Shown: positions 6,005 to 32,000 of the stretch, one piece after another
Layout of the letters: every line of letters starts with the position of its first letter
How positions within the stretch are numbered: the stretch's first letter is position 1
Source: Desulfatiglans anilini DSM 4660
Lineage (GTDB): Bacteria > Desulfobacterota > DSM-4660 > Desulfatiglandales > Desulfatiglandaceae
Assembly: GCF_000422285.1 (NCBI RefSeq)
Contig: NZ_AULM01000011.1
Span: 76,425-108,424, forward strand
Length of the DNA: 32,000 bases
Reading direction: 5' to 3'
Notes under the pieces: generated by a model
Told to the model about the DNA's origin: nothing
What the model saw: the letters and a program-made list of their open reading frames with translations, nothing else
Databases searched by the model: none
Translations under genes and position numbers: made by a program

Positions 6005-6174
6005 AAGGACATCAAGCGTTTGCGCGGAGGCGACCTCGTTTCCAATCCGGAAATGAGGATTCTTGGCCAATATCCAGGAAGTCAAGCGTTTAGGCGGAAG
6101 CGACCCGGTGGTCGCCGCACAAGCAAGCGTGCAGATCGACGCCGAGATCAGCGGGCAGACCTCTTTCGGATGGA
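6005..6174 (+). repeat. MITE-like modular repeat, copy A (rearranged, lacks module 2 and the left terminus)
   Basis: It aligns by eye to copy C. 6005-6036 is a fragment of module 3, 6038-6064 is module 1 (GTTTCCAATCCGGAAATGAGGATT) and 6065-6169 is module 3. It ends with the terminal motif CTCTTTCGGATGGA. Confidence 0.75.
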
Positions 6175-6228
6175 GGCTGCAGCAGGGGTTCCTCTGCGCC
6201 AAACGGGCGTTGTCCAGGCGGCCGTTGC

Positions 6229-10161: not shown

Positions 10162-10259
10162 CTTCTTCATCCTCCTCTATGTTGCTGCCATGCAGCGCCT
10201 TCGCGCAAGGGGCGCCGGGGTATCCTTTCCTCGCCCCCGGCGCGAAGGGGTAAAAAATA

Positions 10260-12107: not shown

Positions 12108-12192
12108 GATGTTCCCCCCTCTTTTTGGTTGAATGCCCGGTGTTCCCTCGACCCGCCGCCCGCGTTTTCCGCGGGAGCGGGTCAGCCCCTGA

Positions 12193-14544
12193 TTACTTCC
12201 CCTTGGCCTTCTGAATGGCCATGAAGACCCTTTCCGGCGTGAGCGGAAGCTCATCGATCCGAACGCCGATCGCGTCGTGTACCGCGTTCAGGATGGCCGG
12301 GATCGTGGGCATGATGGCCCCTTCCCCAACCTCCTTGGCCCCGAACGGACCGTTCGGCTCTCCGGTTTCCACCACGATGGTGTTGACGTTGGGCATGTCC
12401 AGGGCCGTGGCGATCTTGTACTCGCCAAGGTTGCCGTTGAGCACCCGCCCCTTGGCGTCGATCTTCACCTCTTCATAGAGGGCCTCACCGAGCCCCATGG
12501 AGAGCGATCCCTGCATCTGTCCCTCGACGGAGGTCACGTTGATCGCCAGACCGCAGTCGTGGGCGTCCGTCATCTGGTCTACCTTGACGCGTCCGGTTTC
12601 GAGGTCGACCGTCACCTCCACAACCTGGGCGGAGCAGCCATAGGCCGGCGAGGTCCCGACGGCCGCCCCTTTGAATTTGCCGCCCAGTGCCGGCGGCTTG
12701 TACTTCCCGGTTCCGACGATGCTGCCTCTGGCGAGGTAGGCCATGCGGGCGGCCTCCCTGAAGGTGAGTTTGTCTCCGGTGGGCGGATCGGTCCAGCCCC
12801 GATGCTCTTTGATGTAAGCCGTGCGCAGGCCGCTGAAATCCACGTCTTTTTTAAAGTGGATCAGGCCGTCTTTGATGTCCATCTCGTCCATCGGGACGCC
12901 GAGGATCTCGGAGACGACCTCCAATACCTGTCGTTTGACGTCCTCGGCCGCCTCTTTGGCCGCGTGCCCGCTCATCAAGGTCTGGCGGCTCGAATAGGCG
13001 CCGAGATCCACGCCGTAGTCCGTGCTGCCCGAGGAGACCTTGATGTCCTCCAGCCTCACCCCCAGGGCCTCGGCCGCGATCATGCCCATCGTCGTATCGG
13101 AGCCCTGCCCGATTTCGGCGGAGGCCGTCAGGAGATCGGCTGTGCCGCCGTCTTCCCGCAGCTTCAGAACGGCTGTCGAATGGTAGGTGTCCGAACGGTA
13201 GATCGGATACCCGGCGCCCGAAACGAAGAATCCGCAGGCGATCCCGATTCCCTTGCCGGGGGGGAGCTTGCCCTTCTTGGCGTTCCAGTCCGAGCCGTTC
13301 TTCACGGCCTCGATGCATTCCTTCATGCCGAGGCTGCTCATGTTCAGGTCGTTGCAGGTGGTGTCTCCGCGCTCCATCATGTTTTTCAGGCGGAAATCGA
13401 CCGGATCGATGCCCAGTTCCTGGGCGATGGCATCCAGTTGCTGCTCCCAGGCCGCCCGCGCCGCCACGCCGCCGTGCCCGCGCTGGGCCCCGCAGGTGGG
13501 CTTGTTCGTGTAGATCCGATAGCCGTCGTACTTCATGTTGGGCAGCCTGTAGGGGCCGCCGAGGAGGGATCCGGCGTAGTAGACCGTGGCGATCCCGAAA
13601 CTCGTGTAAGCGCCCCCTTCCAGGTAGCACTTGTTGGTCAGCGCCATCAGGGTCCCGTCCTTTTTGACTCCGGTGGTCAATTCGTGGAAGAACTGGTGCC
13701 GCGCGCGGGAGTGTAGAAAGACCTGTTCCCGGGAATAGTTCATCTTGACCGGCTTGCCCGTCTTCATGGACATGAGGGAGGCCGCCATCTCGAGCGGGAT
13801 GGCCTCGGCCTTGGGCCCGAAGCCGCCGCCCACGTAGGGTTTGATCACGCGCACCTTTCCGATGGGGAGACGGAGCACCATGGCCGCGGTGCGCTGCACG
13901 TAATGCGGTGTCTGGGTGGAGGTGTTAAGGGTGAGCTCTCCCGTCAAGGGATCGAAGGCCGCCAGACAGCCGTGCGGCTCGAGGAAGGCGGCGTCCTGAC
14001 GCTTGTTGACGAAGGTGTCCGTGCGGATGAGGTCACACTGCTTGAAGGCCTCTTCGACGTTCCCGAACTCCTGGTGTACCTCGGCGCAGATGTTGCCCGG
14101 ATAGTCCGAGTGGATCAGCGGGGCCCCTTCGGCCATGGCGTCTTCGATCGTCATGAGGGGCGAAAGTTCCTCGTAATCCACCTGGATCAGCGAGACGGCC
14201 TCCATCGCCGTTTCAAGATCGACGGCGGCCACTGCCGCGATCTCGTCGCCGATGTAACGCACCTTGTCGTGGCAGAAGAGGGTTTCATCGTAGCGGGCAG
14301 GGCTCACGCCGTACTTGACGAGGCCGGCTTCGGCGGCCGTAACGACGCACTTGACCCCCGGAAGCTTCAAGGCCTTGGAGGTGTCGATGTTCAGGATCTT
14401 GGCGTGGGCGATCGGGCTTTGAAGCAGGGCACCGTAAAGCATGCCCGGCATCTTCAGATCGTCGACATATTGCGCGCGTCCCGTGGCCTTGGCCGGTGCG
14501 TCCAGCCTTGGCGCCCTGCGGTTGATGACGCTGTGTTGGCTCAT
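12193..14544 (-). CDS. Xanthine dehydrogenase family molybdopterin-binding large subunit (4-hydroxybenzoyl-CoA reductase HcrA-like)
   Basis: 783 aa. The N-terminus APRLDAPAKATGRAQYVDDLKMPGMLYG is typical of the aldehyde oxidase/XDH a/b-hammerhead plus MoCo domains. SD GAGAGGAG is present. Confidence 0.9.
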   Translation of the reverse strand: MSQHSVINRRAPRLDAPAKATGRAQYVDDLKMPGMLYGALLQSPIAHAKILNIDTSKALKLPGVKCVVTAAEAGLVKYGVSPARYDETLFCHDKVRYIGDEIAAVAAVDLETAMEAVSLIQVDYEELSPLMTIEDAMAEGAPLIHSDYPGNICAEVHQEFGNVEEAFKQCDLIRTDTFVNKRQDAAFLEPHGCLAAFDPLTGELTLNTSTQTPHYVQRTAAMVLRLPIGKVRVIKPYVGGGFGPKAEAIPLEMAASLMSMKTGKPVKMNYSREQVFLHSRARHQFFHELTTGVKKDGTLMALTNKCYLEGGAYTSFGIATVYYAGSLLGGPYRLPNMKYDGYRIYTNKPTCGAQRGHGGVAARAAWEQQLDAIAQELGIDPVDFRLKNMMERGDTTCNDLNMSSLGMKECIEAVKNGSDWNAKKGKLPPGKGIGIACGFFVSGAGYPIYRSDTYHSTAVLKLREDGGTADLLTASAEIGQGSDTTMGMIAAEALGVRLEDIKVSSGSTDYGVDLGAYSSRQTLMSGHAAKEAAEDVKRQVLEVVSEILGVPMDEMDIKDGLIHFKKDVDFSGLRTAYIKEHRGWTDPPTGDKLTFREAARMAYLARGSIVGTGKYKPPALGGKFKGAAVGTSPAYGCSAQVVEVTVDLETGRVKVDQMTDAHDCGLAINVTSVEGQMQGSLSMGLGEALYEEVKIDAKGRVLNGNLGEYKIATALDMPNVNTIVVETGEPNGPFGAKEVGEGAIMPTIPAILNAVHDAIGVRIDELPLTPERVFMAIQKAKGK

Positions 14545-14696
14545 GGTCTTTCACTCCTCTCGATAGCTTGGATCGGGTTTTGATGTCTGCGTTGTTTTCA
14601 GGTCTCAGGCTCGGTTGGTCCAGGGAATCAGCAGACCGGAGGCCTCTTTGCAGGGGCGCCGGCCGGAGCGGACCCGGAAATGTTCACCCGGCCTGA

Positions 14697-15161
14697 TCAA
14701 CGGGCGCGGCCGACGTCGAGGATGGCCTCGACGATCTTCTGATAGCCTGTGCAGCGACAAAGGTTTCCGGAAAGCGCGCGTCTGACCTCAGCCTCGTTGG
14801 GATGCGGATTTTTTTCGAGCAGGCTCTTGGCCGAAAGGATCATCCCTGGCGTGCAGAAGCCGCACTGGATCGAACCGTGGTCGATGAAAGCCTGCTGCAA
14901 CGGGTGCAGACCTTTGCCCGTTTCCACGCCTTCGATGGTGGTGATGCTTTTCCCGTCGGCCTGCACGGCCAGGACGAGGCAGGAGTTGACGGCTTTTCCA
15001 TCCATGATGACCGTACAGGCCCCGCAGTCCCCCAGATCACAGCCTTTTTTGGTGCCGGTCAGGCCCAGTTCGTATCGCAGAAGGTCCGTGAGGGTGAGGT
15101 TTGGTGCCACGGCCACTTCCATTTCTTCACCGTTGATGGTCAGTCGGATCAATTTTTTCAT
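14697..15161 (-). CDS. XDH-family [2Fe-2S] small subunit
   Basis: 154 aa with a plant-type cluster motif CDLGDCGACTV and a second cluster motif CGFCTPG...CRCTGY. Confidence 0.92.
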   Translation of the reverse strand: MKKLIRLTINGEEMEVAVAPNLTLTDLLRYELGLTGTKKGCDLGDCGACTVIMDGKAVNSCLVLAVQADGKSITTIEGVETGKGLHPLQQAFIDHGSIQCGFCTPGMILSAKSLLEKNPHPNEAEVRRALSGNLCRCTGYQKIVEAILDVGRAR

Positions 15162-15175
15162 CGTCTCATTCTCCT

Positions 15176-16063
15176 CTAGCTTCTGGCCCGGGCGTCCTTG
15201 AGGGCCGCATCGAGGGCGCGTTTCGTCAGGACCCCCACCATGGCCCGCCGGTATGCGGCGGATCCGCGGAAGTCGTCGATCGGGCGGCTGTCGCCCGAGG
15301 CTGCATTCGCTGCTTTCTCGAACAGTGCGTCGGAGGGCTTTTCGCCGATCAGCGCATTTTCGGCCGACGGCGCCCGGATGGGCGTGGGGGCGACCGAACC
15401 GAGGACCACCCGTGCGGCCTTGATCGGTCCGTCCGGACCATCGAGAGCGATGAAGGCCGCCACGTTGACGAGGGAGATCTCGAGCGCCTCACGAACCCCG
15501 AGCTTCTGGTACCCGGCTCCCGAGTTCGGGAGCGGTGCCGGCAGGAGAAAAGCGGTCAGAAGTTCATCCTGGGCCAGGATCGTGGCGCCCGGGCCGGTAA
15601 AGAGCGATTCCACCGGGACGGTGCGCTCGCCGCCTGTTTTCTGGAGCACGGCCTCTGCACCATAGGCGATAAGGGACGGGGGAAGGTCGGCCGCCGGACG
15701 GGCCGAAACCACATTGCCGGCGATGGTCGCGAGGTTTCTGACCAGCGGGGAACCGAGCCAGCCCGCGCCGGAGGCGAGGGCGGCAAAGGTCTTCTTCACC
15801 AGCGCGTTTTCGGCCAGATCCGCCACGTTTTCACGGGCGCCGATGCGCACCTGCCCATTTTTCTTGTCCACCCCTTTCAGGTCTGCGATTTTTCCGACGG
15901 AGATCACATTCGCCGTGGTGAAGACCTTTTTTTTGAGGTTGACCAAAAGGTCCGTTCCGCCTGCCAGAACTTTTCCGTCCCCTTTGAACTGTGACAGCAG
16001 TTCGCAGACATTCGCCACGCTCCCGGGCTCATGGTAATCGAATCTAGGTAAAAGCATCTTCAT
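15176..16063 (-). CDS. XDH-family FAD-binding medium subunit (CoxM/HcrB-like)
   Basis: 295 aa with the VLAGGTDLLVNLK FAD motif. The whole protein has only one Cys. An alternative start at 16057 has better SD spacing. Confidence 0.88.
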   Translation of the reverse strand: MKMLLPRFDYHEPGSVANVCELLSQFKGDGKVLAGGTDLLVNLKKKVFTTANVISVGKIADLKGVDKKNGQVRIGARENVADLAENALVKKTFAALASGAGWLGSPLVRNLATIAGNVVSARPAADLPPSLIAYGAEAVLQKTGGERTVPVESLFTGPGATILAQDELLTAFLLPAPLPNSGAGYQKLGVREALEISLVNVAAFIALDGPDGPIKAARVVLGSVAPTPIRAPSAENALIGEKPSDALFEKAANAASGDSRPIDDFRGSAAYRRAMVGVLTKRALDAALKDARARS

Positions 16064-16099: not shown

Positions 16100-16681
16100 C
16101 TATCGGGGCTTCGCGGACGTTTCCTCGCCCCAGCGCTGGAACAGGTTGTGCTCGATTCCGAGGTAATCAAAGATTTTTCCAATGGTCTGATCGAGGATGT
16201 CCTCGATGGTTTTGGGTTGGTGGTAGAACGACGGCACGGGAGGCAGAAGATGGGCGCCCATGTCGGCGGCGGTCATCATGAGCCTGAGGTGCCCCTTATG
16301 TAAAGGTGTTTCGCGGACGACCAGCACCAGTTTGCGCTTCTCCTTCAGCGTGACGTCGGCGGCGCGGACGAGAAGATTTTCGGTGTAGGAATTGGCGATT
16401 CCCGAGAGGCTCTTGATCGTGCAGGGTGCGACGACCATTCCCGAGGTGAGGAAGGATCCGCTGGCGAGGGCCGCACCGACGTCGCGGTGATCATAGCAGT
16501 ATGCGGCCATGGCTTCAATATCCTTTGCGGTATACCTGGTTTCGATCTCGATATTTTTTTTGCCTGATGGCGAGATGATGAGGTGGGTTTCGACATCGGT
16601 TTTACTGAGGTGTTCCATTAGACGTACGCCATAGATGACGCCGCTGGCGCCCGAAATGGCTACGACGATTCGTTGATTCAT
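16100..16681 (-). CDS. ubiX: Flavin prenyltransferase UbiX (prFMN synthase)
   Basis: 193 aa with RIVVAISGASGVIYGVRLMEHL and a length and C-terminus typical of UbiX/Pad1. Confidence 0.92.
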   Translation of the reverse strand: MNQRIVVAISGASGVIYGVRLMEHLSKTDVETHLIISPSGKKNIEIETRYTAKDIEAMAAYCYDHRDVGAALASGSFLTSGMVVAPCTIKSLSGIANSYTENLLVRAADVTLKEKRKLVLVVRETPLHKGHLRLMMTAADMGAHLLPPVPSFYHQPKTIEDILDQTIGKIFDYLGIEHNLFQRWGEETSAKPR

Positions 16682-19950: not shown

Positions 19951-21357
19951 TTAGAAACCCAGTTCAGACCAGCGAGCTTCGACCCTCTTGACCATTTCGG
20001 GGTCGAGCTTGATCGGGATGGGCTTCTCTTTCCAGTCGTAGGGGATGGTGGCGTCCAGCAGGAGGCGGCCCGTGATATCCCTGGCGTCGATGGGCAGCGA
20101 GGGATCAAGCGGAGTCGAGCGGCCGCGCTTGATGACCTGGCAGCGGTTCGGCTGGAAGCGGAAGCTCAGGGCGTACAGGACCCGTGGAATGTCCCAGGGC
20201 TCGATGTCTTCGTCGACCACGATCACGGTCTTGAGGCCGTAGGCGCCCATTTCCGTCGAGATGGCTGCGGTGAGCACCTGGTCGGCGTGGCCAGGGTACA
20301 TCTGCTTCATGGAGATGATGGCGAGGAAGCGGCCCGAGCCTTCCGGCGGGCAGTACACCGAACGGATGCCGGGGATCTTCATGCCGACGAGCTGCTGCCA
20401 CAGGGTCGCGCCGTAGGAAACGGCCATGGTCATGTGGGTGTCGGTGACCGCGCGGCCGACCGTGGTGCCCCAGAGGATCGGGTTGTTGCGGTAGGTCACG
20501 CACTTGACATCGATGAAGTTCCTGGGATCGGTTCCGACGCCGGAATAGTAGCCGGTGTATTCACCGAACGGGCCTTCCTGCATGAAGGCCTCGGGATCGA
20601 CCTCTCCTTCGACGACGATTTCAGCGTGCGCCGGGATCGGGAGATCCACAGTTTCACCCTGGACCACCTCGACCGGTTCGTTGCGAATGGCACCGGCGAC
20701 ATCGTACTCCGACACGAAAGCGGATATCCGGGCGGCGCCAAGGATGAAGAGCAGGGGGTCACAGCCGATGATCGAGGCGACCGGCATCTTTTTGCCCATG
20801 GCCTGGTATTTCTTGAGCATGATGTCGGCGTGCTTGCCTTTGATGAACTGGGTGCCCATTTTATCCTTCCCGAGGAGTTGGGAGCGGTAGGTGCCAAGGT
20901 TCACCCAGCCGGTCTCGGGGTCCTTCGAGATGATGAAGTGGGCGGTGCCGAGATAGCGGCCGCCGTCGAGGGGGTACCATTGGGGCGTCGGGAATTTGTA
21001 GAGGTCGACTTCGTCGCCCATCATGATATTCTCTTTGCAGGGCGCGGCAGACTTGTCCACTACCTTCGGGGGGATCAGCTTGTCGCCGATTTTAACCCAT
21101 TCTTCCATAATTTGCGTTAGGGAAGATGACGGGTCCATCCCCATGATGAGGGAGAGTCGCTCTGTGGTCGTGCAGACGCTCGTAATGACGGGTGTGGTGT
21201 AATCCTTCACGTTCTCGAACAGCAGCGCCGGACCTTGCTGTTCTTCGTTGAGCTTGGCGATGTGCGACAGCTCCAGGTTCCAATCGACCTCCGCCTTGAT
21301 CCGCTTCAGCGCGTTGTGCTCTTCGGCCACCTTGACAAAATCTCTCATGCTTTTCAT
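19951..21357 (-). CDS. UbiD-family prFMN-dependent (de)carboxylase
   Basis: 468 aa with MRDFVKVAEEHNALKRIKAEVDWNLELSHIAKL...GPALLFENVKDY, and UbiD-like similarity along its length. SD AAGGAG lies 8 nt upstream. Confidence 0.9.
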   Translation of the reverse strand: MKSMRDFVKVAEEHNALKRIKAEVDWNLELSHIAKLNEEQQGPALLFENVKDYTTPVITSVCTTTERLSLIMGMDPSSSLTQIMEEWVKIGDKLIPPKVVDKSAAPCKENIMMGDEVDLYKFPTPQWYPLDGGRYLGTAHFIISKDPETGWVNLGTYRSQLLGKDKMGTQFIKGKHADIMLKKYQAMGKKMPVASIIGCDPLLFILGAARISAFVSEYDVAGAIRNEPVEVVQGETVDLPIPAHAEIVVEGEVDPEAFMQEGPFGEYTGYYSGVGTDPRNFIDVKCVTYRNNPILWGTTVGRAVTDTHMTMAVSYGATLWQQLVGMKIPGIRSVYCPPEGSGRFLAIISMKQMYPGHADQVLTAAISTEMGAYGLKTVIVVDEDIEPWDIPRVLYALSFRFQPNRCQVIKRGRSTPLDPSLPIDARDITGRLLLDATIPYDWKEKPIPIKLDPEMVKRVEARWSELGF

Positions 21358-21960: not shown

Positions 21961-22166
21961 GCGATTCATGCATAACCAGCTCTTAGGGATCGGATCACCG
22001 TGATGCGGCGGAAGAGAGGCTGCGCCCATGTTTCCTGTTTTCCCCTTGGAGGGGCCAGGATCCCTTCTGATGGGGCTGTGCGTGAATGGGGTCCTTTCGC
22101 TTGAAGTGGCGGGGCAGCAGCCTCGTTTCGGGAATTGAGGCGCAGGATGCCAGGAGGTCGGTTTCT

Positions 22167-23135
22167 ATGATTAATTTCAATCATTTCAGGATATTTTACT
22201 ATGCTGCCAAGGCGGAAAGTTTCACCGAAGCGGCGGAGAAGCTCTTCATTACCCAACCGGCCGTGACGGCGCAAATACGCGCCTTCGAAGAAGCCTGCAA
22301 CCTCAAATTGTTCAAAAAAAAAGGGCGCCACGTCAATCTTACAGACGAAGGGAAGGCCCTTTTTCACTATGCCCGCAAGGTTTTCGAATTCGAGCATGAA
22401 ATTGAGGTTGCGATCGACAAAATGCACCAGCTCAAGCGGGGGGTCCTGCGGATAGGGACCACCAAGACCTATGCGCGTTACTTCATGCCTTACCTTCTCA
22501 GCGCCTTTTTGAAGGATTACCCAGACATAAAGGTCTTTTTGAACGAGGGCAGTTCGGCCGAAATGACCCGCGGACTGCTCGATCTGACTATCGAGATCGC
22601 GGTAATCGCCAAAGCCGAGGAGAACCCAGCGGTTGTCTTCAGGCCCTTCAGCCAGGAGGAACTGCTGCCTATTCTTCCACCCGGTCACAGGCTGGCGGGG
22701 CGGGACTCGGTGCATTTCACGGAATTGGCCGGGGATCCGATCATTTTGAAGGATACCGGGTCAGGGACGAGGAGGCGCGTGGCGGATCTCTTCGCGAGGT
22801 ACGGACGTGTCCCGAATATCCTGATGGAAACGAACAATGTCGAGTTCATCAAAGAGCTGGTTGGGAGGGGAGAGGGCTTCTCTTTCCTCGTCAAGGCGGC
22901 CGTGGTGCAGGAGGTAAAAGAAAAACGGCTGGTCACGCCTCAGATAAGGGGGGAGCATCTTTACCTCGATGTGAGCATCGCCTACCTGAAGGATCAGTCC
23001 CTTTCGAGGCCAGCCAAGGCCTTTCTGCGTATGCTCGAGAATCTGGCCGGCGACAACCCGTCACCGGCCGAAGGCATCGGGGCGCTCACAGCGAGGATCC
23101 TGGCCCGCGCCGAGAAAACTGCCCGGATCGAATGA
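22167..23135 (+). CDS. LysR-family transcriptional regulator
   Basis: MINFNHFRIFYYAAKAESFTEAAEKLFITQPAVTAQIRAFEE is the LTTR winged-HTH. AGGAGG lies 9 nt upstream of the ATG at 22167. The track ORF start at 22086 is an upstream extension. Confidence 0.9.
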   Translation: MINFNHFRIFYYAAKAESFTEAAEKLFITQPAVTAQIRAFEEACNLKLFKKKGRHVNLTDEGKALFHYARKVFEFEHEIEVAIDKMHQLKRGVLRIGTTKTYARYFMPYLLSAFLKDYPDIKVFLNEGSSAEMTRGLLDLTIEIAVIAKAEENPAVVFRPFSQEELLPILPPGHRLAGRDSVHFTELAGDPIILKDTGSGTRRRVADLFARYGRVPNILMETNNVEFIKELVGRGEGFSFLVKAAVVQEVKEKRLVTPQIRGEHLYLDVSIAYLKDQSLSRPAKAFLRMLENLAGDNPSPAEGIGALTARILARAEKTARIE

Positions 23136-23191
23136 CACGCCTTTCCGAACAGCCGCCATCCGCCTTTGTATTCTAATCTTCGAAAAAACCT

Positions 23192-24406
23192 CTACTCACC
23201 GCTGTTCTGGATCATGGCATGCATTTCCCGGGCGCACTGCTCGGCGAAGGTGCTCGAATTGATGTGCTGGTGCGATTCCTGGATGCTGACCGCAGATGAG
23301 AGATTCTCACGGACTGTGTTCAGGAAAAAACGGTTCATCGCCGGATCATACAGAGGCGCACCTTCCTTGTCGGCCTCGGACCACCCGAGCGTTGGGATGA
23401 GCAGTTTGGCACCCCGGCCGAAACGATTCAATTTTTCGGCCAGCTGGCGGGCCAGTGTCGCAGCCTCCTCCCGGCTCAATCGAACGGCGGAACGGAAATC
23501 ATAGAAGAAGATGCTTCGCTCCCGGTATCGCTCCGGTATGTGGTTGCGATCGAAGATCAGAACTGCGCAGTCGAGGCCCCCGGGGATCACCAGACGGGGT
23601 GGGTTGGGTCTTCCGGGGAAGGGCACGAGCCTTCCCGGCCCGATGCCGCCGCAGTAACCGTCCAGGAGGGCGTCGGCCAGTTCGTGGGTGGCGAAATCGA
23701 GGACGCCCGCGAACAGCCCTTCGGATGCCAGTTCTTCCATCGCCATCCCGCCGGTTCCATTGGCGTGAAAGGGAATGACTTCGTAGCCGAGCGCCTCCAG
23801 ATGCCTGCGTACGTGCTCCGCCCCCTCGGTAATGAAGCCGAACATGGTCAGGCCCACCCGCTTTTTCGTCCTGCCGGTTCGATGCCTTTCGTTGCTTTCC
23901 ACCATGCCGCAGACGGCTCCGGCGGCGCGCTCCAGCAGTCCGGCGGAAATGCTGTTGATGCCCAGCAGATCCACGACGCTGTGCATCATGGTGATATCTT
24001 TGGTCCCCACGGTACGGGACATGTCCCTGGAGGCCACCGTGGATATCATGACCTTGGGGGTGCCCATGGGGAGGATGCGCATGATCTCGGTGCAGAGATA
24101 GGTGCCGGTCCCTCCGCCCGCTGAGATGACTCCGGAGAGGCCGTCCTGCCGGTAGCGTTCCTGCACCACCGAGCGCCCCTTCTCGATGACGGCCTCGATG
24201 GCTTCGTCTCGGCCCAGACCTCCGCGGGGCGCGATCGCCTCGGTGTACAGATCGTAGTCGACGGGAAAAGGCGCCGGGGCCTTGGTTCCCGCGTGAATCG
24301 TCAACGCCGGAAATCCCCGTTCTTCGATCACGTCTCTGAGGTAAGCATGTTCCTCTCCTTTGGAATCGAAGGTCCCCAGTACAACGACCGCCTTGTTTCT
24401 CTCCAT
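23192..24406 (-). CDS. UPF0261 / Tm-1-like ATP-binding domain protein, paralogue 2
   Basis: 404 aa and collinear with the 16902..18113 product: VVVLGTFDSKGEEHAYLRDVIE, AGGGTGT, PKVMIST. It is convergent with the LysR gene. Confidence 0.8.
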   Translation of the reverse strand: MERNKAVVVLGTFDSKGEEHAYLRDVIEERGFPALTIHAGTKAPAPFPVDYDLYTEAIAPRGGLGRDEAIEAVIEKGRSVVQERYRQDGLSGVISAGGGTGTYLCTEIMRILPMGTPKVMISTVASRDMSRTVGTKDITMMHSVVDLLGINSISAGLLERAAGAVCGMVESNERHRTGRTKKRVGLTMFGFITEGAEHVRRHLEALGYEVIPFHANGTGGMAMEELASEGLFAGVLDFATHELADALLDGYCGGIGPGRLVPFPGRPNPPRLVIPGGLDCAVLIFDRNHIPERYRERSIFFYDFRSAVRLSREEAATLARQLAEKLNRFGRGAKLLIPTLGWSEADKEGAPLYDPAMNRFFLNTVRENLSSAVSIQESHQHINSSTFAEQCAREMHAMIQNSGE

Positions 24407-24835
24407 GGCAACGCTCCATTATCCATAGGTTGCAGCGGGTGGAAGGGATACTTCCCGACAAAGTCCATATTCTTTGAAACGGTCTATTCAGAGTGCTTGC
24501 CGTTAGACGCGCACGAACTGTTGTCCGTGCCGGGGGCTGCGCCTGACAGCGTGTTCGACAGCCTGCCGTTCCTGAGCAGGCATGAGATGTTCAGCTGTAA
24601 TGTCAGCGAAATCCCAAGGAAAGCTTCAAACACAGGTTTGATCGACGACTCTTTTCTGGATTGAAAGGTCACATATATAGGCCATCGCGAAAAGATCGTC
24701 AAAAGAATTTCGTCGCAGGAAGATTGGTTTAAGCTTTTTTAAGCTGTTGTTTTAGTTTGTTACCAGTTTGTCGAGCCTTTTAGCCACCCATGGGCTGCTT
24801 CAGGGTGGAGATCCTGGCCCTGGTCCCACAAATTT

Positions 24836-25110
24836 TCCATCCGGAAATGGTCTTTTGGCCCAATCTCTGCGTCAATCTTTGCGCTTGCTTGTGCGCCGGC
24901 CACCAGGTCGCCCCCGCGCAACCGCTTGATTTCTTCGATCTTGGCCAGACCGGGACCCGCCCCGCAGGGGTGGGACTGAGCACGCGCAGCGTGTGAAGAA
25001 ACCGGGAACCCGCAGCGCGGCGGTGGGATCGAGCAGCCGAAGGGTGTGAAGAAAAATCCTCATTTACCGATTGGAGACCGGGTTCCACCGGGAAATCATC
25101 TTTGAATGGA
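24836..25110 (-). repeat. MITE-like modular repeat, copy B (inverted relative to A and C, module 2 duplicated)
   Basis: The + strand starts TCCATCCGGAAATGGT and matches the reverse complement of copy C over its whole length. About four in five positions match by eye in the first 100 nt. An internal tandem duplication spans 24949-25000 and 25001-25053. Confidence 0.8.
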
Positions 25111-25213
25111 GGCTGGAGAGCAGGCCGCCTCTGCGGGTAAACCTTTGCGAAAGGGGTCATTTTGCCGAAGATGAGAGCGCACACTTCGTAGCGAAACCTC
25201 CCCGGTCGCTTTT

Positions 25214-25253
25214 GGTGTAGGAAATCAAGACAAGGTGTGTAGGAAAAGACAAC
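25214..25253 (+). promoter_or_regulatory. Tandem 2 x 20-bp direct repeat, candidate upstream activator site
   Basis: GGTGTAGGAAATCAAGACAA followed by GGTGTGTAGGAAAAGACAAC, about 210-240 bp upstream of the sigma54 promoter. The 20-bp period would place both units on the same helix face. Confidence 0.35.
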
Positions 25254-25456
25254 ATAGTGGCTTAAAGCAGGAAATACCGGGTTCGCCTCTTTGGGCAGCA
25301 GCGGATTATAGGTATGGTACTAGGCTGCACTGTTGTATTTCACGCCAACCTAGTCCTCTTCGATGGAGGCAGGATCTGGCCGCCCTTCTTTTCCTTTGGA
25401 TAAAAAATTTAATATGATCAGTATGATATGTCGTATTTTCTCCATTTGATCCGGTT

Positions 25457-25472
25457 TGGCACGCAGGTTGCT
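25457..25472 (+). promoter_or_regulatory. Sigma54 (RpoN) -24/-12 promoter
   Basis: TGGCAC gcagg TTGCT matches the TGGCAC-N5-TTGCW consensus exactly. It lies about 55 nt upstream of the ATG at 25527. An AT-rich tract (25400-25440) lies upstream, where a bending site would be expected. Confidence 0.72.
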
Positions 25473-25526
25473 TAAGAAGACAACCAACACAAGACATCAC
25501 CCTTCCTCTAAAGAAAGGAGCAGGAC

Positions 25527-26525
25527 ATGGCTAGCAAAGATGCAGAAAATCGGAGAGCGACGGTGGGGTACGGTTCGACCTATCGCAGGGGCCGTAGCCA
25601 GGACCCCGCGGATAACGCCTCGCTGAAGGCGGTTTTGAACGGACAGCTCTGGATGGTCAAGCCGGACAAGCAGGCCCAGGCGGCCAATCCGTGCATCTGG
25701 ATGCAGGCGGGCGTGGTCGATTTCAAGAACTGCAACAACTTCTACGATTGTACGACCTGCAAGTATGATGGGGGTATGAAGAAAAAGGTCGAGAAGGGGG
25801 CCGCGACCGGTTGGCGGGATGCGATGCGGCGGAGGCCCGGCCTGGAGCGGGTCTGCCGCCACACCTTGACGAACCGGATCGAGGAGCGGGTCTGCGCCTA
25901 CGATTACGCCTGTCACAAGTGTGACTTCGACCAGTTTTTCGAGGACGTGTGGGCCCCGAAAACGGCGTCCCGGCCGGACGAGATGCACGATGTCAAAGGC
26001 TTTGCTGTCCCGACGGGCTATTATTTCAACGACGGCCACTCATGGGCCCGGATCGAAAGCGGCGGGTACATCCGGATCGGCATGGACGACTTCGCTCTCA
26101 AGCTGTTTGGCAGGGCCGATGCGTATGAACTGCCGGTTATCGGGAAAGAGTTGTCTCAGGGCAAACCTGGATGGGGTTTCAAACGATCGGCGCAGGAGGC
26201 CGAGGCCCTTTCGCCGGTGAACGGGGTTATCGTCGAGGTCAACGGCGATCTGCGTGAAAAGCCGGCGATGGCGAATGCCGGGCCTTATGAGGCCGGATGG
26301 ATGATGCTCGTGAGGACACCCGATATCAAGGGAACACTGGCGAATCTGATGACCGACGCCGACAGTATCGGATGGCTGAACCAGGAGGTGAGGCAGCTGG
26401 AAGGCATGATCGAGGAGGTGGCCGGACCTCTGGCGGCAGACGGTGGTACACTGGGTGAGGACATCTATGGGAATCTGCCGGGTCTTGATTGGGGCAACCT
26501 CCGGCGTGCGTTTCTCAAAAGCTGA
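25527..26525 (+). CDS. GcvH-fold protein lacking the lipoyl-lysine, with two N-terminal C-X12-C-X5-C-X2-C modules
   Basis: 332 aa, with SD AAAGGAG. The Cys modules are at Cys56/69/75/78 and Cys110/123/129/132. The C-terminal half, YYFNDGHSWARIE...IRIGMDDFA...LSPVNGVIVEVNGDL...PYEAGWMM, is collinear with glycine cleavage H protein. Confidence 0.78.
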   Translation: MASKDAENRRATVGYGSTYRRGRSQDPADNASLKAVLNGQLWMVKPDKQAQAANPCIWMQAGVVDFKNCNNFYDCTTCKYDGGMKKKVEKGAATGWRDAMRRRPGLERVCRHTLTNRIEERVCAYDYACHKCDFDQFFEDVWAPKTASRPDEMHDVKGFAVPTGYYFNDGHSWARIESGGYIRIGMDDFALKLFGRADAYELPVIGKELSQGKPGWGFKRSAQEAEALSPVNGVIVEVNGDLREKPAMANAGPYEAGWMMLVRTPDIKGTLANLMTDADSIGWLNQEVRQLEGMIEEVAGPLAADGGTLGEDIYGNLPGLDWGNLRRAFLKS

Positions 26526-26832
26526 TCGCGAAGCGGAGCACCCTGCTGGGAGCCCGCCACGCAGCGAGTCCTTTTTCGTAGTCAAGCGCGATGCAGCCGG
26601 GCAGGCCGGGCCCGGCTCCAAGGTCTCATGCTGAGGGTGGATGCGGCGAAAGACTGAAACCGGCCGGCATAAACGACCGGTCCGAAAACGAGGTTTTGCG
26701 GCGGAAATCAGCGGAATCAAGCCGTCGGGCGCATCCTGACGCCCGATCATCTTAGAGGCGGGAATTGCAGGGAAGCAGAAGAAAACCGGGAAAGCCCGCT
26801 TGCCGGGGCAACCGGATCCAGGGAGAGATGCT

Positions 26833-27552
26833 ATGGAAAAAGAGAGGGAGACCGGAAACCGACTGGATGCGCGCCGTCCATGCAAGAGGCATGTGGAAGG
26901 ATACATCGGATACCGACCCTGCACCCATGATTACCGCTGCGATGATTGCGAGTTCGAGCAGTTTTTCCTGGATCACTACCGGGTTCATGCGGTGGTTCAG
27001 CCCGTTGATACGATCAAGATCCGGGGGTTCGATGTGCCGCAGGGGTATTATTTTCACGCGGGCCACACGTGGGCGAAGGTCGAGGGAGACCAGACGGTGC
27101 GTATCGGGCTGGATGATTTCGCCTTCAAGACGCTCGGCCCCTTCGACCGCCTCGATGTGCCGTTGATTGGAAAGGAGATCCATCAGGATCGTCCAGCCGT
27201 AACGGTTTATCGGGATGAACACCGCTCGGCCGTCCGTTCGCCGCTGAGCGGTATTGTGACCGCTGTCAACCAGGAGCTTCTCGAGGATGCGCGTGCGGCG
27301 TTCGACCATCCCTATGCCGACGGATGGCTTCTGACAGCCCATGCTACGGCGCTCAGGAGCGATCTGAAACAGCTCATGATCGATCAAGAGACGAAAGCGT
27401 TTATGCGGAAAGAGGTCGACGAGCTGTTCGGTCTGATCGAGGAGACCCTGGGGCCTATGCCGAACGATGGAGGCGATATCCGGGGCGACCTGTACGGAGA
27501 AGCTCCGGAGATTGGCTGGGACAGGTTGAGCCGCCTGGTTTTCAAGACGTGA
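26833..27552 (+). CDS. GcvH-fold protein lacking the lipoyl-lysine, with one N-terminal C-X12-C-X5-C-X2-C module (paralogue)
   Basis: 239 aa from the ATG at 26833, after SD AGGGAGAG. The track ORF starts at a TTG at 26800. The Cys module is at Cys17/30/36/39, followed by YYFHAGHTWAKVE...VRIGLDDFA...RSPLSGIVTAVNQEL...PYADGWLL. Confidence 0.78.
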   Translation: MEKERETGNRLDARRPCKRHVEGYIGYRPCTHDYRCDDCEFEQFFLDHYRVHAVVQPVDTIKIRGFDVPQGYYFHAGHTWAKVEGDQTVRIGLDDFAFKTLGPFDRLDVPLIGKEIHQDRPAVTVYRDEHRSAVRSPLSGIVTAVNQELLEDARAAFDHPYADGWLLTAHATALRSDLKQLMIDQETKAFMRKEVDELFGLIEETLGPMPNDGGDIRGDLYGEAPEIGWDRLSRLVFKT

Positions 27553-27637
27553 AACTGCGCACTTTCCGGAAGGAAACCAACTCCTGTCCAGATGTTCCCT
27601 GCCTCAGAGGGGACCCCGGATCGGCAAACGGCGTGAT

Positions 27638-28207
27638 TCAAGGCGTTTCTTCCGCCATCCTGTCCAGTTCGTCTTGGAGGAGAACCCTGCAATATCGGCA
27701 GAATGCCTGGGATTTGCGGTCGACATGCTCGATTTTGCGGCAATAGTGCATGATGCAGCGGGTTTCAGGGCAATGCTTGAGATTGAAGGTGTGGCCGAGT
27801 TCGTGGACGGCCTCCTTCATGAGGCGGCAGCGGAGTCGTTCAGGATCGCCTCCGGCAGAGATCCCCTCGTTCAGCCGGTGGGTCGAGACGATGCAGGCCC
27901 TGCCACCCAGTTGAGCTTCGCCGTAAACGTGGGTGAGGATCGGAATGTACAGGTCGCGGTCGGTGACGGCCAGGATCTTCAAGGCATCGGGCGGGGCGAG
28001 TTCAGCAAGCCGGGTGAGGATCGCCGTCGAATGGTATTGATCCCTTTGCGTGTTGTAAGCGAAATCGATGCTGTCCAAGAGGGGCATGGCGACTGTCGGA
28101 TAGCCGAAAAGACGACTGATTTCGAGGCCGACGGATTCGAGATAGGATTCCTGGCCGTCGCTAATGGAAGTCAGGACGATGATGGATGATGCCTTTCCTG
28201 GTTTCAA
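27638..28207 (-). CDS. Archaemetzincin-type zinc metallopeptidase (peptidase M54)
   Basis: It has HELGHTFNLKHCPETRCIMHYC...CRYC, matching the HEXXHXXGX3CX4CXM...CXXC signature with G replaced by N. The upstream region DRDLYIPILTHVYGEAQLGG is typical of AMZ proteins. The proposed TTG start at 28207 overlaps the activator stop as TTGA and follows AGGAAGAAGGA. The track ORF to 28297 would overlap the activator by 94 nt. Confidence 0.78.
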   Translation of the reverse strand: MKPGKASSIIVLTSISDGQESYLESVGLEISRLFGYPTVAMPLLDSIDFAYNTQRDQYHSTAILTRLAELAPPDALKILAVTDRDLYIPILTHVYGEAQLGGRACIVSTHRLNEGISAGGDPERLRCRLMKEAVHELGHTFNLKHCPETRCIMHYCRKIEHVDRKSQAFCRYCRVLLQDELDRMAEETP

Positions 28208-29550
28208 TCCTTCTTCCTGATTCCGTAGCGCTTCATTTTGCTGTAAAGGGTCGACCGGTCGATGCCCAATGTCTCCGCGCACTTGGATATATTCCACTGG
28301 TGTTGTTCAAGGATTTTAACGATGTGGGCCTTCTCGAGTTCTTTCAGGGACTGATCGGCGGGCTCGAGGGTCATCTGGTCCGGGCTGAAGATCGGCAGAT
28401 GTTCAGGCAGGATGGTCGGGCCTTTGGCAACGACGACCGCCCGTTCGACGGCGTTTTCCAGTTCCCGGATATTGCCCGGCCATTCATAGAGCATCATCTC
28501 GTCCAGGGCGTCACGGCTGATCCGTTCGACCGGTTTGTTCGTCTCCTGCGCGAAACGGTGCAGGAAATGCGCGGCAAGCAGAGGGATGTCCTCTTTACGT
28601 TCCCTGAGGGGCGGCATCTCGAACGTAAACACGTTCAAGCGGTAGTAGAGATCCTCCCGGAAGCTCCTTTCGCGGATCGCCTGCTCCAGGTTGCGGTTGG
28701 TGGCTGCAATGACGCGGAAATCCACCTCGAGCGGCTGGGTGCTTCCGAGGCGGTAAAAGACATGATCCTCGAGGATCCGCAGTAGATCGATCTGCATCCG
28801 CATGCTGATCTCGCCGATCTCATCGAGAAAAAGGGTGCCGCCGTGGGCCAGTTCGAATCGTCCCTTCTTGGTCTCTTTGGCATCGGTGAAGGCCCCTTTC
28901 TGATAGCCGAACAACTCGCTTTCGAGAAGCTGTTCCGGAAAGGCGCCGCAGTTGATCGAGACGAAGGGCCCGGCGCAGCGGCGGCTGAGGGTGTGGACGG
29001 CCTTTGCGGCGAGGCCCTTGCCCGTGCCGGTTTCACCCCGGATCAGGACGGTCGAGTCGGTCGGGGCGACATCGCGGATCAGCTCGAAGACCTTCTGCAT
29101 GGCCTTTGACTGGCCGATCATGCTTTCGAAGCGGGTCCTTTCGCGCACTTCCTGTCGGAGATACTGGTTTTCGAGTGCCTGCAGCTGCTGTTTTTCGATC
29201 CGCTCGATCAGGATTCCGAGTTCGTCCGGATCGAACGGTTTCATCAGGTAGTCGGTGGCGCCGTGCTTCATGGCTTCGACCGCCGTGTTGACCGAACCGT
29301 ACGCCGTGATCATGATGACGGCGATGTCAGGATCGTTCTCCTTGACAGCCTTCAGGACGTCCAGACCGCTCATGCCCCCCATCTTGATGTCCAGCAGAAT
29401 GATATCGAAGCGGGATTCTTCGATCATCGCCAGGGCCTCTTCGCCGCTCGAAGCGGTCTTCAGTTGATGCCCGTCTCTTTCAAGCCAGCCTGCCAGAGAT
29501 TCCCTTACGATGAGTTCATCATCGACGATCAGGATCTTGCTGCCGCCCAT
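28204..29550 (-). CDS. Sigma54-dependent response regulator (REC - AAA+ - Fis-type HTH; NtrC family)
   Basis: REC domain: KILIVDDE...[17 protein letters not shown]+ domain: [31 protein letters not shown]: [25 protein letters not shown]. The ATG at 29550 follows AAGGAGG with 5-nt spacing. The track start at 29580 is a TTG extension. Confidence 0.92.
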
Positions 29551-29791
29551 GGAGCCCTCCTTGTTCGTTTCCGTTCCCAAACTGTTCCGCCGGTCGCTCT
29601 CTGTACCGGACCGCAGGCCGTTTCGTGCCGACCCCTATGCGCGGTGATCCGTCCAGGCGGATCCCCGCTTTTGCTGCCCCCGGCCGGAGGGCGGCCTTTG
29701 CGCGTCGAAGATGCTCCTGGGATGGATGCTGGCTCCATTCGAATGCCACCTCCTGCTCATCGGGGAATGGCTGCCAAGCGGGGCCTGCCTT

Positions 29792-29915
29792 TCCATCCGG
29801 AAGTGAGAATGTTTCTTCGCAGTGGGCCCCGGGTTTTTCCGTATCAAGCATACGAGGCGTTTGTTCGTGCGGCGACCCGGAGGTCGGCTTCGTGCAAATG
29901 AGCATTCCGTACGCC
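29792..29915 (-). repeat. MITE-like repeat, copy D (degenerate, module 3 plus terminus) between the kinase and activator genes
   Basis: The + strand starts TCCATCCGGAAGTGAG, the same terminus as copy B. The core GTGCGGCGACCCGGAGGTCGGC...GCAAATGAGCATTCC is collinear with module 3 of copies B and C but carries indels. Confidence 0.55.
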
Positions 29916-30016
29916 TCCCTTCTGGAGATTGGGCAGACCATGGATCTGGATAGTTTTCCCACGGCCTGAGAACAGCGGACTTTTCGACACGCTGTCATAG
30001 GTTTCGGACGCGCGCA

Positions 30017-31567
30017 TCAGGCGCCCTGGCTCGCCTCCCGATTCACCGGGAGTTTGACGAGAAAGGTCGTGCCCTTGTCCGGCTCCGACTGAACCTCGAT
30101 GGTCCCGCCATGGTTTTCGATGATGCCGTAGGCCACTGAAAGACCCAATCCGACGCCCTTCCCTTTAGTCTTGGTGGTGAAGAAGGGTTCGAACAGGCGC
30201 GGGAGGTTTTCTTTGGGGATGCCGGGGCCGTTGTCCTCGAATGTAATGAAGACCTGGCCGGCTTCTTTGACGTCGCCGGTCCTGATCGTCAGCGTGCCGC
30301 CGGGCATTGCCTCCATGGCCTCGGCGGCGTTGGAAATGAGGTTCATAAAGATCTGCTGGAGGTGATCCTCCGAGCCCATGACCTCGGGAAGCCCGGGATC
30401 GAGGTCGGTAACGACGCTCACATTGTGTATCTTGAGGAGATTCGAGTTCAGGAACAAGGTCTTCTGCACCAGCCGGTTGAGATCGACGAGTTTCAATTCA
30501 ATTTTCGACTGTCTGGAGAACGTGAGCAGGTTGGAGACGATCCTGCTGATCCGCCGGGTTTCCGTCTCCATGAGGTCCAGGTAGCGGGCGAATTTCTGCA
30601 GGTCCTCGGTTGTCAGGCGCCCCTCCTGGCTGATGCGTTTCATGAGCAGGATCAGGTTGAGAATGCCGGCTATGGGATTGTTGATTTCGTGGACGACGGA
30701 AGCGGACAGCTTTCCCAAGGAGGCCATTTTGTCCTGATGAAGGAGTTTGGCGTGCGTTTCTTCAAGGGCTTTCGTCCGCTCCTCGACCATCCTCTCCAGG
30801 CGCTGGGTGATGCGCTCTTCCTCGCGTTTCCGGTCGGTGATGTCGCGGCTGACTTCGATGAATTTCGATATTCGGCCGTTGTCCTCGAAGATGGGGAACA
30901 TGGTGACTTCGGTATAAATGGGCTGTCCGTCGCTGTCGATACGCGTTACGACCTGCTGTGAAGGCTCCCTGTTCCTGATGGCCTCGTTCATGGGGCAGAA
31001 GATGATGCCTTCGTTGCAGGGCTGGTTGCCTTTCTGGAAGACCTCATGGCAGGAGTGTCCGACGACCTGCTCGCGGGTGTAGCCCATTTTGGTCAGGAAG
31101 GCCTCGTTCACCTCCACGATCTTTCTGTCCGGGGTGATGACGAGAATAAAGTCCTGAATTCCGTTGAGGATGGTTTCCATATCGAGGCTGCGGTCACGCC
31201 ATTTGGCTTCCTCAAGCCGGGTGGCCGCCCAGAACATCATAAAGACCGCGCGGGTCATGATGCGGATGTGATCGGGGCTGTGTTTGAGGACGTCGTCGGT
31301 GACTTTTTCGTCCCGGCAAAGGACCAGAATCAGGTGGATATCGAGGGATGGGTCGTAAAGCGCATGGTAATCTTCGAGGACGCTGAGCCCGATGGATTTC
31401 GCGAAGAGGACTGCCGGGCTCTCCGGGTCGGGGTCGACGACGGCGACATACCGGGCCTTGACATCCTCCTGGGAATAGGAACTGGTGGTCTTTTCGAGGA
31501 CCTCGCGGGCCAGTTTTCCGCCGCCGACAATCCCGATATTCAGCAGCGAAGGCGGGTGTTCGACCAT
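30017..31567 (-). CDS. Cytoplasmic sensor histidine kinase (Rossmann-like N-domain - Cys-rich PAS - HisKA - HATPase_c)
   Basis: 516 aa with no hydrophobic segment. N-terminus: NIGIVGGGKLAREVLE. PAS domain contains HSCHEVFQKGNQPCNEGIIFCPMNEA. H-box: SVVHEINNPIAGI. N box: NLISNAAEAM. G boxes: DNGPGI and GKGVGLGLS. Confidence 0.9.
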   Translation of the reverse strand: MVEHPPSLLNIGIVGGGKLAREVLEKTTSSYSQEDVKARYVAVVDPDPESPAVLFAKSIGLSVLEDYHALYDPSLDIHLILVLCRDEKVTDDVLKHSPDHIRIMTRAVFMMFWAATRLEEAKWRDRSLDMETILNGIQDFILVITPDRKIVEVNEAFLTKMGYTREQVVGHSCHEVFQKGNQPCNEGIIFCPMNEAIRNREPSQQVVTRIDSDGQPIYTEVTMFPIFEDNGRISKFIEVSRDITDRKREEERITQRLERMVEERTKALEETHAKLLHQDKMASLGKLSASVVHEINNPIAGILNLILLMKRISQEGRLTTEDLQKFARYLDLMETETRRISRIVSNLLTFSRQSKIELKLVDLNRLVQKTLFLNSNLLKIHNVSVVTDLDPGLPEVMGSEDHLQQIFMNLISNAAEAMEAMPGGTLTIRTGDVKEAGQVFITFEDNGPGIPKENLPRLFEPFFTTKTKGKGVGLGLSVAYGIIENHGGTIEVQSEPDKGTTFLVKLPVNREASQGA

Positions 31568-31776
31568 GGATTCTTCTCCTTTGTGGGCGCTGGATGCGGA
31601 TCGGCCGGGGATTGGCGCATGCCGTGGTGAAAGGACGAAACGCGTATCCGGCCGGAATTGCTTGATCCAGCGCGCGCCGAATGGAAACTAAGCGTTGATC
31701 GGGCGGCTGGGTGTGGTTAAAATAGCTTCATACGGGAGTGGAGAAAAGGCTGTTCCCGGCTGGGAGCATAATAAGA

Positions 31777-32000
31777 TCCATCCGGGAATGATTTCCCGGA
31801 AAAACCCGGTTTCCAACCCGGAAATGAGGATTTTCTCGCCACACCCTTCAGGTGCTCAGTCCCAACGCTTTGGCGTGAGGCTGGTCCCGGTTTTTTTCAA
31901 TATCAAGGAAATCAAGCGTTTGCGCGGAGGCGACCTGCAGGTCGCCGCACAAGCAAACGTGCAGATTGACGCCGAGATTGGCCAAAAAGACCATTTCCGG
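31777..32000 (+). repeat. MITE-like modular repeat, copy C (near-complete, right terminus cut by the window edge)
   Basis: It starts TCCATCCGGGAATGAT and contains the palindrome TCCGGGAA-tgat-TTCCCGGA at 31781-31800. Modules 1, 2 and 3 are present once each. The window ends in ...GACCATTTCCGG, which is the inverted copy of the left terminus. Confidence 0.8.

Follow-up and report, generated by a model that had tools for sequence, protein, structure and literature searches.

The window, by which we mean the whole 32,000-nucleotide stretch of Desulfatiglans DNA analyzed here, encodes RuvABC, YebC and FtsJ, followed by an anaerobic phenol/4-hydroxybenzoate-type gene cluster that includes PEP-utilising and PPDK_N proteins, a three-subunit molybdenum hydroxylase, UbiD, UbiX and CoA ligases. 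It also contains genes for AFOR, a LysR regulator and a histidine kinase with a sigma54 regulator. The YebC protein is 100% identical to that of 'uncultured Desulfatiglans sp.' (LR026961.1, GCA_900498135.1), and the adjoining genes match as well. Dispersed among these genes are copies of a repeat and, at one position, an empty target site for it:

3027-3088, minus strand: a fifth copy, the relic of a right half (profile model positions 112-172, E 3e-5)
6005-6177, plus strand: copy A, rearranged (profile model positions 32-173, E 5e-37)
23169-23175, no strand: empty target site TATTCTA, present as a single copy (context ...TTTGTATTCTAATCTTCG...)
24833-25112, minus strand: copy B, the long form of 280 nt (176 + 2 x 52), which covers the interval 24836-25110 of an earlier note on this DNA
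24952-25054, minus strand: tandem 52-nt internal (M) units of copy B (24952-25001 and 25005-25054, 78% identical)
29753-29957, limits approximate, plus strand: copy C, old and degenerate (plus-strand model positions 5-152)
31774-32000, full extent to 32008, plus strand: copy D, the 235-nt form with one M unit

The four copies A to D had been recognized in the earlier note, and all four are present at a level far beyond chance. Copies B and D align over 168 nt at 79% identity (E 1e-33) and B and A (6064-6174, plus strand) over 112 nt at 76% (E 2e-18); A (6064-6148, plus strand) and D are 88% identical over 81 nt, and repeat detection pairs B with D over 103 nt at 84% plus 58 nt at 79%. Moreover, a profile HMM constructed from 48 copies from outside the window detects all four, with E-values of 1e-28 to 1e-41 for A, B and D and of 3e-8 for C. 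The statistical weight of the family comes from these long alignments and not from the short end motif, which by itself is weakly enriched in the window (8 matches vs 2.9 expected). The relic at 3027-3088, which is located in the yebC-ftsJ intergenic region, was missing from the original list, and two further tandem units lie beyond the window end (4.7 kb; positions 4500-4880 of L001, a metagenome contig identical to window 23940-32000), between HdrA-like and MvhD-like genes.

Copies B and D are full-length long forms, and A, C and the relic at 3027-3088 are decayed copies. In copy B, the terminal inverted repeat (TIR) of the right end is well preserved (plus strand 24833-24851, TTTTCCATCCGGAAATGGT), that of the left end (25094-25112) has degenerated, and there is no recognisable target-site duplication (TSD). 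Copy D starts with a left TIR at 31774-31792 and extends 8 nt past the window end (...CCATTTCCGGATGAAAAC, as read from contig L001); it is flanked by ATAATA (31768-31773) and, just past the window end, AAAATA, a 5/6 match, and has orthologues on two other contigs (L100, 13485-13719; L081, 8017-8251). The inverted termini described previously, TCCATCCGGGAATGAT at 31777-31792 and TCCATCCGGAAATGGT at 24836-24851, are as reported, with the true family ends (GTN...NAC) situated 3 nt outside of those first quoted. Copy A, located between the convergent genes for AFOR (4015-5745, plus strand) and a nitroreductase (6229-6771, minus strand), consists of a displaced central-hairpin fragment (6005-6036), the inner left motif and a complete right module, and lacks the outer left TIR. 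Copy C had been assigned to the minus strand but fits the profile better on the plus strand (E 3e-8 vs E 8e-7); the terminus attributed to it, TCCATCCGGAAGTGAG, is the inner left motif rather than a right end. This copy lies between the genes for the sigma54 response regulator (28204-29580, minus strand) and the histidine kinase (30017-31567, minus strand), antisense to both.

The basic unit of the family is a 176-bp, near-palindromic sequence without coding capacity (consensus GTTTCCATCCGGAAATGATTTCCCGGTAGAACCCAGTTTCCAATCCGGAAATGAGGATTTTTGGCCAATATCAAGGAAATCAAGCGTTTGCGCGGAGGCGACCTGCAGGTCGCCGCACAAGCAAACGTGCAGATTGACGCCGAGATTGGCCAAAAAGACCATTTCCGGATGGAAAC), bounded by imperfect TIRs of 17-19 bp, GTNTCCATCCGGAAATGAT at the left and ACCATTTCCGGATGGAAAC at the right, with column conservation of 80-99% across 48 distinct copies; in short form, the family ends read GTNTCCATCCGGAAATG. 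The family is approximately 50% G+C, and the translation of the single open frame in the consensus has no words in common with any entry of a protein database of 5.8 billion sequences. Full copies fall into three length classes (176, 228 and 280 nt), the first of which accounts for 44 of 80 among the matches listed. The 228- and 280-bp forms consist of the 176-bp unit with one or two additional M units (CTTCACACCCTTCGGGTGCTCAGTCCCACCGCTTCGCGGCGGGTCCCGGTTT), inserted after ...GAGGATTTTT; the number of these units per element is 0, 1, 2 or more, in tandem, and each is predicted to fold into two small GC-rich hairpins. An independent REP-like identity of the 52-nt unit was considered and ruled out, with 94 of its 96 occurrences found inside copies of the family.

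The left end of the element has two direct copies of the motif TCCA(N)CCGGAAATGA, at positions 4 and 40, and the right end has a single copy in inverted orientation; all three are presumably bound by the transposase. The outermost 36 nt at the left represent an additional direct repeat of the terminus. Positions 37-176 form a diverged palindrome, in which it is the inner left motif that truly mirrors the right end. Beyond the end motifs, the palindromic part amounts to approximately 115 nt and is likewise diverged.

The distribution of the family was explored by scanning collections of species-representative genomes and metagenomes with its most conserved internal 20-21-mer as the query. The 21-mer has exact matches in two species-representative genomes, neither of which is that of G. 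uraniireducens, and the metagenome scan retrieved at least 118 DNA stretches; the loci derive mainly from three related JGI samples (Ga0068712-14), apparent re-assemblies of these and one ENA sediment assembly. The bounds of the elements were obtained by anchored extraction followed by end pairing. Among the matches listed, the 0.92 Mb of loci contain 337 non-overlapping HMM matches at about 160 distinct sites that are defined by unrelated flanks, and 80 full copies possess both ends. The earlier note had made its reading depend on whether copies elsewhere keep the termini and whether they always occupy the same orthologous loci: among these matches, the 80 full copies retain the GTNTCCATCCGG.../...CCGGATGGAAAC ends, and the sites are different, non-orthologous ones next to unrelated genes. 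Identity of the 48 distinct 176-nt copies to the consensus has a median of 95% and a maximum of 99%, a sign of recent amplification. Long contigs carry at least 5-8 exact 20-mer matches per approximately 180 kb, and extrapolation from this density suggests some hundreds of copies per genome. Furthermore, diverged copies are present in one Geobacteraceae MAG and one Desulfosudaceae MAG, the latter copy flanked by a perfect TAATTA duplication. These diverged copies show that either the family or its transposase has passed between lineages of Desulfobacterota.

Among the matches listed, 20 of the 80 full copies are flanked by perfect 6-bp direct duplications and 13 more by duplications with 5/6 matches, far above the expectation of 0.42 and 1.9, respectively, from shuffled flank pairing. 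The same 80 copies give no such signal at 4, 5, 8 or 9 bp and include no matching flank 8- or 9-mers. The duplicated hexamers are variable, with the consensus (logo) TANNTA. About 60% of the full copies have no recognisable TSD, a fraction that fits age, recombination between copies or errors in the placement of boundaries.

Insertion can be followed directly by comparison with L100, a syntenic contig that is colinear with window 18238-32895 and 93-94% identical to it. At 4926-5102 of L100, a 176-bp copy is bordered on each side by the heptamer TATTCTA, and the window has the precise empty site, the single TATTCTA at 23169-23175, between the convergent genes for LysR (22086-23135, plus strand) and UPF0261 (23192-24406, minus strand). 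This is a filled/empty insertion polymorphism, found in a related genome as the earlier note had suggested one might look for it; a second such pair, L101 (filled) and L066 (empty), is less clean, its target having diverged. Copies C and D are common to the window strain and L100 and therefore are older than the split between them; C is kept at the same site, and the aligned block runs unbroken across it. The site of copy B is occupied in L100 by another 176-bp copy, which is oppositely oriented and lacks a TSD, and the window has 88 + 47 extra nucleotides compared to L100, a difference that suggests repeated insertion or recombination at this site.

Conserved termini, dispersed sites, TSDs and the filled/empty pair all favour mobility, in agreement with the mobile-element reading proposed previously. 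We are highly confident that the repeats belong to a non-autonomous DNA transposon, a MITE family. The units, of 176, 228 or 280 bp without a transposase gene, are of MITE size, and judging from its sequences the family appears to be a previously undescribed member of a well known kind, with every character of a MITE apart from an identified parent IS. The elements are also dominated by hairpins and strongly intergenic, and their modular build with a variable number of internal units recalls BIMEs, so one could envisage a REP/BIME-like element or an IS200/IS605-derived PATE that is moved as single-stranded DNA by a Y1 (HUH) transposase (RAYT/TnpA). Elements of Y1 transposases, however, leave the target unduplicated, whereas variable 6-bp direct duplications flank the copies studied here and the empty site retains exactly one of the duplicated heptamers. 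Besides, the repeating entity is a 176-bp unit with defined inverted termini rather than a 20-40-nt palindrome, and no tnpA- or RAYT-like gene is present in the loci examined; hence we consider movement by a Y1 transposase to be very improbable.

The copies are biased toward intergenic DNA and depleted from coding sequence: stretches of 200 or more codons without a stop span 31% of the sites emptied in silico, vs 80% of random positions. They are found between convergent, divergent and co-directional gene pairs alike, and the neighbours are functionally unrelated, with radical SAM proteins, NAD synthase, PurD, FabD, PlsX, glyA, a glucanotransferase, ABC transporters and two-component systems among them. 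Some copies reside within operons, namely C between the kinase and regulator genes and E1/E2 between bam-like genes. Between co-directional genes there is a weak trend toward the antisense orientation (16 vs 6, p = 0.05, with a crude call of gene orientation).

These contexts bear on the notion that the repeat is not mobile and instead represents a conserved host regulatory region, for example, the enhancer sites of a BamVW-like sigma54 activator, which was duplicated along with the aromatic operons. Copies B and D do lie in divergent promoter regions next to the histidine kinase/sigma54 regulator pair and aromatic-catabolic genes, and the repeated CCGGAAAT motifs resemble protein-binding sites. 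Against such an origin, copies occur between convergent gene ends (A, and the L100 insertion at 23169), adjoin the unrelated purD, glyA, fabD, plsX and glucanotransferase genes, and in the Geobacteraceae and Desulfosudaceae MAGs are adjacent to genes that have nothing to do with aromatic degradation. Together with the roughly 160 distinct sites among the matches listed, the TSDs and the presence/absence polymorphism, these observations effectively refute a regulatory-region origin of the family, to which we give next to no credence.

According to the earlier note, copies form brackets around the aromatic cluster and the sigma54 module; this related proposal receives no special support. The density of copies in the window, about one per 6-7 kb, is high enough to account for the apparent bracketing of gene clusters; copies also occur within operons, and in the sister strain one more copy sits within the 'bracketed' block.

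The 176-bp unit is predicted to fold as a single rod (-83.6 kcal/mol, z = -9.3), and the opposite strand folds equally well. RNAalifold returned no consensus structure for 79 diverse right modules, and conservation of the structure was measured by a named-structure count in its place. Pairing of the palindrome is retained in 85% of the cells of these 79 modules; both-sided changes that keep a pair were found in 78 cells, vs 31 +/- 5 in shuffled data (0 of 500 shuffles reached the observed value), and the covariation score is 0.153, vs at most 0.066 when the partners are slid. In the variants L015 and L084, the 5' arm is perfectly complementary to the 3' arm, and this looks like hairpin-templated correction. 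Three explanations would fit this maintenance of the palindrome: symmetry of the ends to which the transposase binds, templated repair of palindromic DNA, or selection acting on a hairpin of RNA or DNA. The palindrome-keeping changes could signify structural selection rather than purely selfish spread.

This raises the question of whether some copies of MITE origin, among them the ones adjacent to the aromatic-degradation and sigma54 genes, were co-opted by the host. At the RNA level, the hairpin of approximately -84 kcal/mol could be an RNase III site, an mRNA stabiliser or an operon barrier; at the DNA level, a host protein might recognise the repeated CCGGAAAT motifs. Consistent with such roles are the very stable fold of both strands, the preservation of palindrome pairs by both-sided changes above the levels of shuffles and slid controls, the retention of C and D at orthologous sites in genomes that differ by about 6%, the copies located within operons (C, E1/E2) and the weak antisense trend mentioned above. 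The covariation, however, can also be explained by a need for matching ends or by hairpin-templated correction, and the antisense trend (16 vs 6, p = 0.05) depends on the crude gene-orientation call. Moreover, every orientation and context is represented, and copies such as A, C and the relic decay freely. No Rfam family matches at the gathering score anywhere in the window, or even at E <= 1 on copy B or the L100 copy. In the promoter and terminator scans, the region of copy B yielded no sites above background, and the surroundings of copy D yielded a few consensus matches, one of them inside the element, that are not clearly above the shuffled background. On balance, co-option appears unlikely.

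Returning to the MITE reading, the counterpart of the elements would be a transposase encoded elsewhere. The earlier note had reported no transposase in the window, and we likewise found none there. The full-length, transposase-bearing element with the same termini that it had proposed to look for did not turn up in the loci, the plasmids or the viral contigs. Specifically, inward-facing end pairs 0.6-5 kb apart enclose radical SAM, NAD synthase and PurD genes and no autonomous element; ordinary genes and, again, no autonomous element lie beside 26 orphan ends; all-against-all BLAST of 0.95 Mb of loci reveals no multicopy segment of 0.6-4 kb; and neither the plasmid collection nor the viral contigs, in two scans, contain a match to the family. 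An apparent orphan right end beside Pfam-less ORFs in one locus (L067) proved to be an internally deleted copy. Four observations count against the MITE reading: no autonomous element was found in these places, about 60% of the full copies have no recognisable TSD, copy B itself has no TSD and differs at its site in a complex way from the sister strain, and the palindrome-keeping changes are enriched. The earlier statement that the repeat cannot be assigned to an IS family still holds; the transposase, and hence the IS family, are entities that we only infer. The presence of copies in Desulfatiglans, Geobacteraceae and Desulfosudaceae points to a putative transposase common to all three. Conceivably, the family is an orphan MITE whose enzyme lies outside the described IS families or shares few terminal bases with it, and whose unusually complete palindrome, kept by compensatory changes, has a host role, for example, as an RNA or DNA hairpin that punctuates operons, those for anaerobic aromatic degradation in Desulfatiglans included, but we view this combination as improbable.

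With respect to the mechanism, we propose that a DDE-type transposase encoded elsewhere would act in trans, binding the terminal and subterminal motifs, cutting the target TANNTA with a 6-bp stagger and joining the element to it, and that gap repair after joining would create the 6-bp duplication. The number of 52-nt units might change by slippage or unequal recombination. Tandem arrays could originate through insertion beside an existing copy or, alternatively, through recombination between the right-end ATTTCCGG and the left-end ATTTCCCGG. Copy decay, internal deletion and tandem fusion are all seen. Where an element is co-transcribed, its RNA would fold into a highly stable hairpin, with possible effects on mRNA processing.

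In practical terms, the family explains why contigs break and spurious small ORFs appear in Desulfatiglans assemblies, and it can be used to type strains, given that even genomes with 93-94% identity differ in their insertion sites. It also marks rearrangement hot spots in anaerobic aromatic-degradation clusters, the site of copy B being structurally variable between strains. No general concept is changed by the family; rather, a high-copy MITE with a modular, BOX-like build and a TANNTA target is added to a lineage that is known almost only from metagenomes.

In the library searched, no paper contains the terminal sequences and none names the sample accessions, and the Desulfatiglans TRIP_1 genome paper makes no mention of such repeats. 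With bacterial MITEs in general, the family shares the small size (176-280 bp), the non-coding nature, TIRs, TSDs of fixed length, high copy number, intergenic location, insertion polymorphism between relatives and a predicted strongly folding transcript. Unlike in typical MITEs, the inverted symmetry spans nearly the whole element rather than the termini alone, and the left end carries the extra 36-nt direct duplication of the terminus.

Among IS groups, the IS481 family and the ISNCY/ISDol1 group, the latter first found in Desulfococcus oleovorans, generate duplications of 6 (to 7) bp; IS481 elements target NCTAGN and have ends that begin with TGT. The combination of a 6-bp TSD with a palindromic, A/T-rich target is reminiscent of elements of the IS481 or ISDol1 type, which are candidate relatives at most, and ISDol1 comes from Desulfosudaceae, the family of one of the copy-bearing MAGs. 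The ends of the present family begin with GTN, in contrast to the TGT of IS481.

The inverted-repeat, hairpin-forming Correia elements of Neisseria and ERIC elements of Enterobacteriaceae, which are 100-160 bp long and co-transcribed with neighbouring genes, offer another parallel, in potential RNA behaviour. Correia hairpins are substrates of RNase III, and Correia elements duplicate a TA dinucleotide. Functional effects are documented for Correia and ERIC elements; the family described here has no sequence similarity to either.

In its architecture, the family resembles the pneumococcal BOX element (boxA-boxB(n)-boxC), which has been classed as 'MITE-like' (PMC3184786). Both have complementary conserved end modules around a variable tandem internal unit, and both fold as a whole into a long hairpin. 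The two are unrelated in host and sequence, and BOX elements are not known to have clear TSDs, as opposed to the clear 6-bp TSDs of the present family.

By host and size, the nearest described element is, going by the parts of its published description that we compared, Chunjie of Geobacter uraniireducens Rf4 (Chen et al. 2008, as summarised in PMC3184786 and PMC10969869), which is reported to be 178-235 bp long, with 21-bp TIRs, a very stable fold, 9-bp direct repeats and an A+T-rich composition. As far as that description goes, the two families share a host from Desulfobacterota (the former Deltaproteobacteria), the size range, TIRs of about 20 bp, size variants, a very stable predicted RNA fold and insertion both in operons and in intergenic regions. 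Compared by Chunjie's description only, the Desulfatiglans family is set apart by its 6-bp duplications and approximately 50% G+C. Together with the lack of an exact match to the conserved 21-mer in G. uraniireducens, these descriptive differences indicate that the family is likely not identical to Chunjie.

Copies of the 176-bp MITE family occur not only singly but also in tandem and nested arrays of up to ~1 kb, as seen at two metagenome loci (L121, 4700-5030; L012, 2626-2996) and in one locus cluster of 1032 nt. In one array, the insertion point of the second copy coincides exactly with the target-site duplication (TSD) of the first, with AAGTCTA common to both; in other arrays, the units are fused, the right end ..CCATTTCCGG being directly joined to the left subterminal segment TAGAACCC... 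Internally deleted copies are present at two further metagenome loci (L112, 1230-1320; L067, 10330-10441): in one deleted copy the inner left motif is fused directly to the right terminus, leaving 37 nt, and in another only the central hairpin is missing. The central hairpin itself also varies. In the copies at L015:156-274 and L084:230-347, the 5' arm has changed into a perfect complement of the 3' arm, as in GCTTGTAAGGCGACC TGCA GGTCGCCTTACAAGC, a pattern suggestive of sequence correction templated by the hairpin in palindromic DNA.

Within the window, ruvABC, yebC and ftsJ are followed by a cluster of the anaerobic phenol/4-hydroxybenzoate type, an aromatic-degradation cluster that also includes CoA ligases and two UPF0261 genes; its mapped members are:

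4015-5745, AFOR
9085-12254, PEP-utilizers/PPDK_N
12193-16063, Mo-hydroxylase, three subunits
16100-16681, UbiX-like
19951-21357, UbiD

Copy B, the 280-nt form on the minus strand at 24833-25112, is flanked by divergent genes, one encoding UPF0261 and the other a GCV_H-domain protein. Its intergenic region (24748-25157) differs structurally from the counterpart in a strain 93% identical (sister contig L100, 6686-6858), which holds an oppositely oriented 176-bp copy that has no TSD; the window has 88 + 47 nucleotides more. This site appears to be an insertion or recombination hot spot.

With respect to orientation, among the 80 full copies in the loci examined, those lying between co-directional neighbor genes are antisense in 16 cases versus sense in 6 (binomial p = 0.05), an excess that is a hint only because the genes were called crudely, from the longest ORFs. 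Near copy D (31774-32000, plus strand, running past the window end), 15 nt upstream, lies one occurrence (31733-31759) of a 27-nt repeat, CGGGAGTG.AGAAA...CTGTTCCCGG; it is 85% identical to a second occurrence at 13706-13732 within the Mo-hydroxylase gene; this similarity may be due to chance or may reflect a binding site.

Just past the window end, at 9100-9360 (window-equivalent ~32210-32470) of a metagenome contig identical to window 23940-32000 (L001), an HdrA-like (BamE-like) gene is called as two pieces, of 59 aa and 1395 aa. The break between them is an in-frame TGA (...NDCAM-TGA-IISPK...) that probably encodes selenocysteine instead of disrupting the gene.
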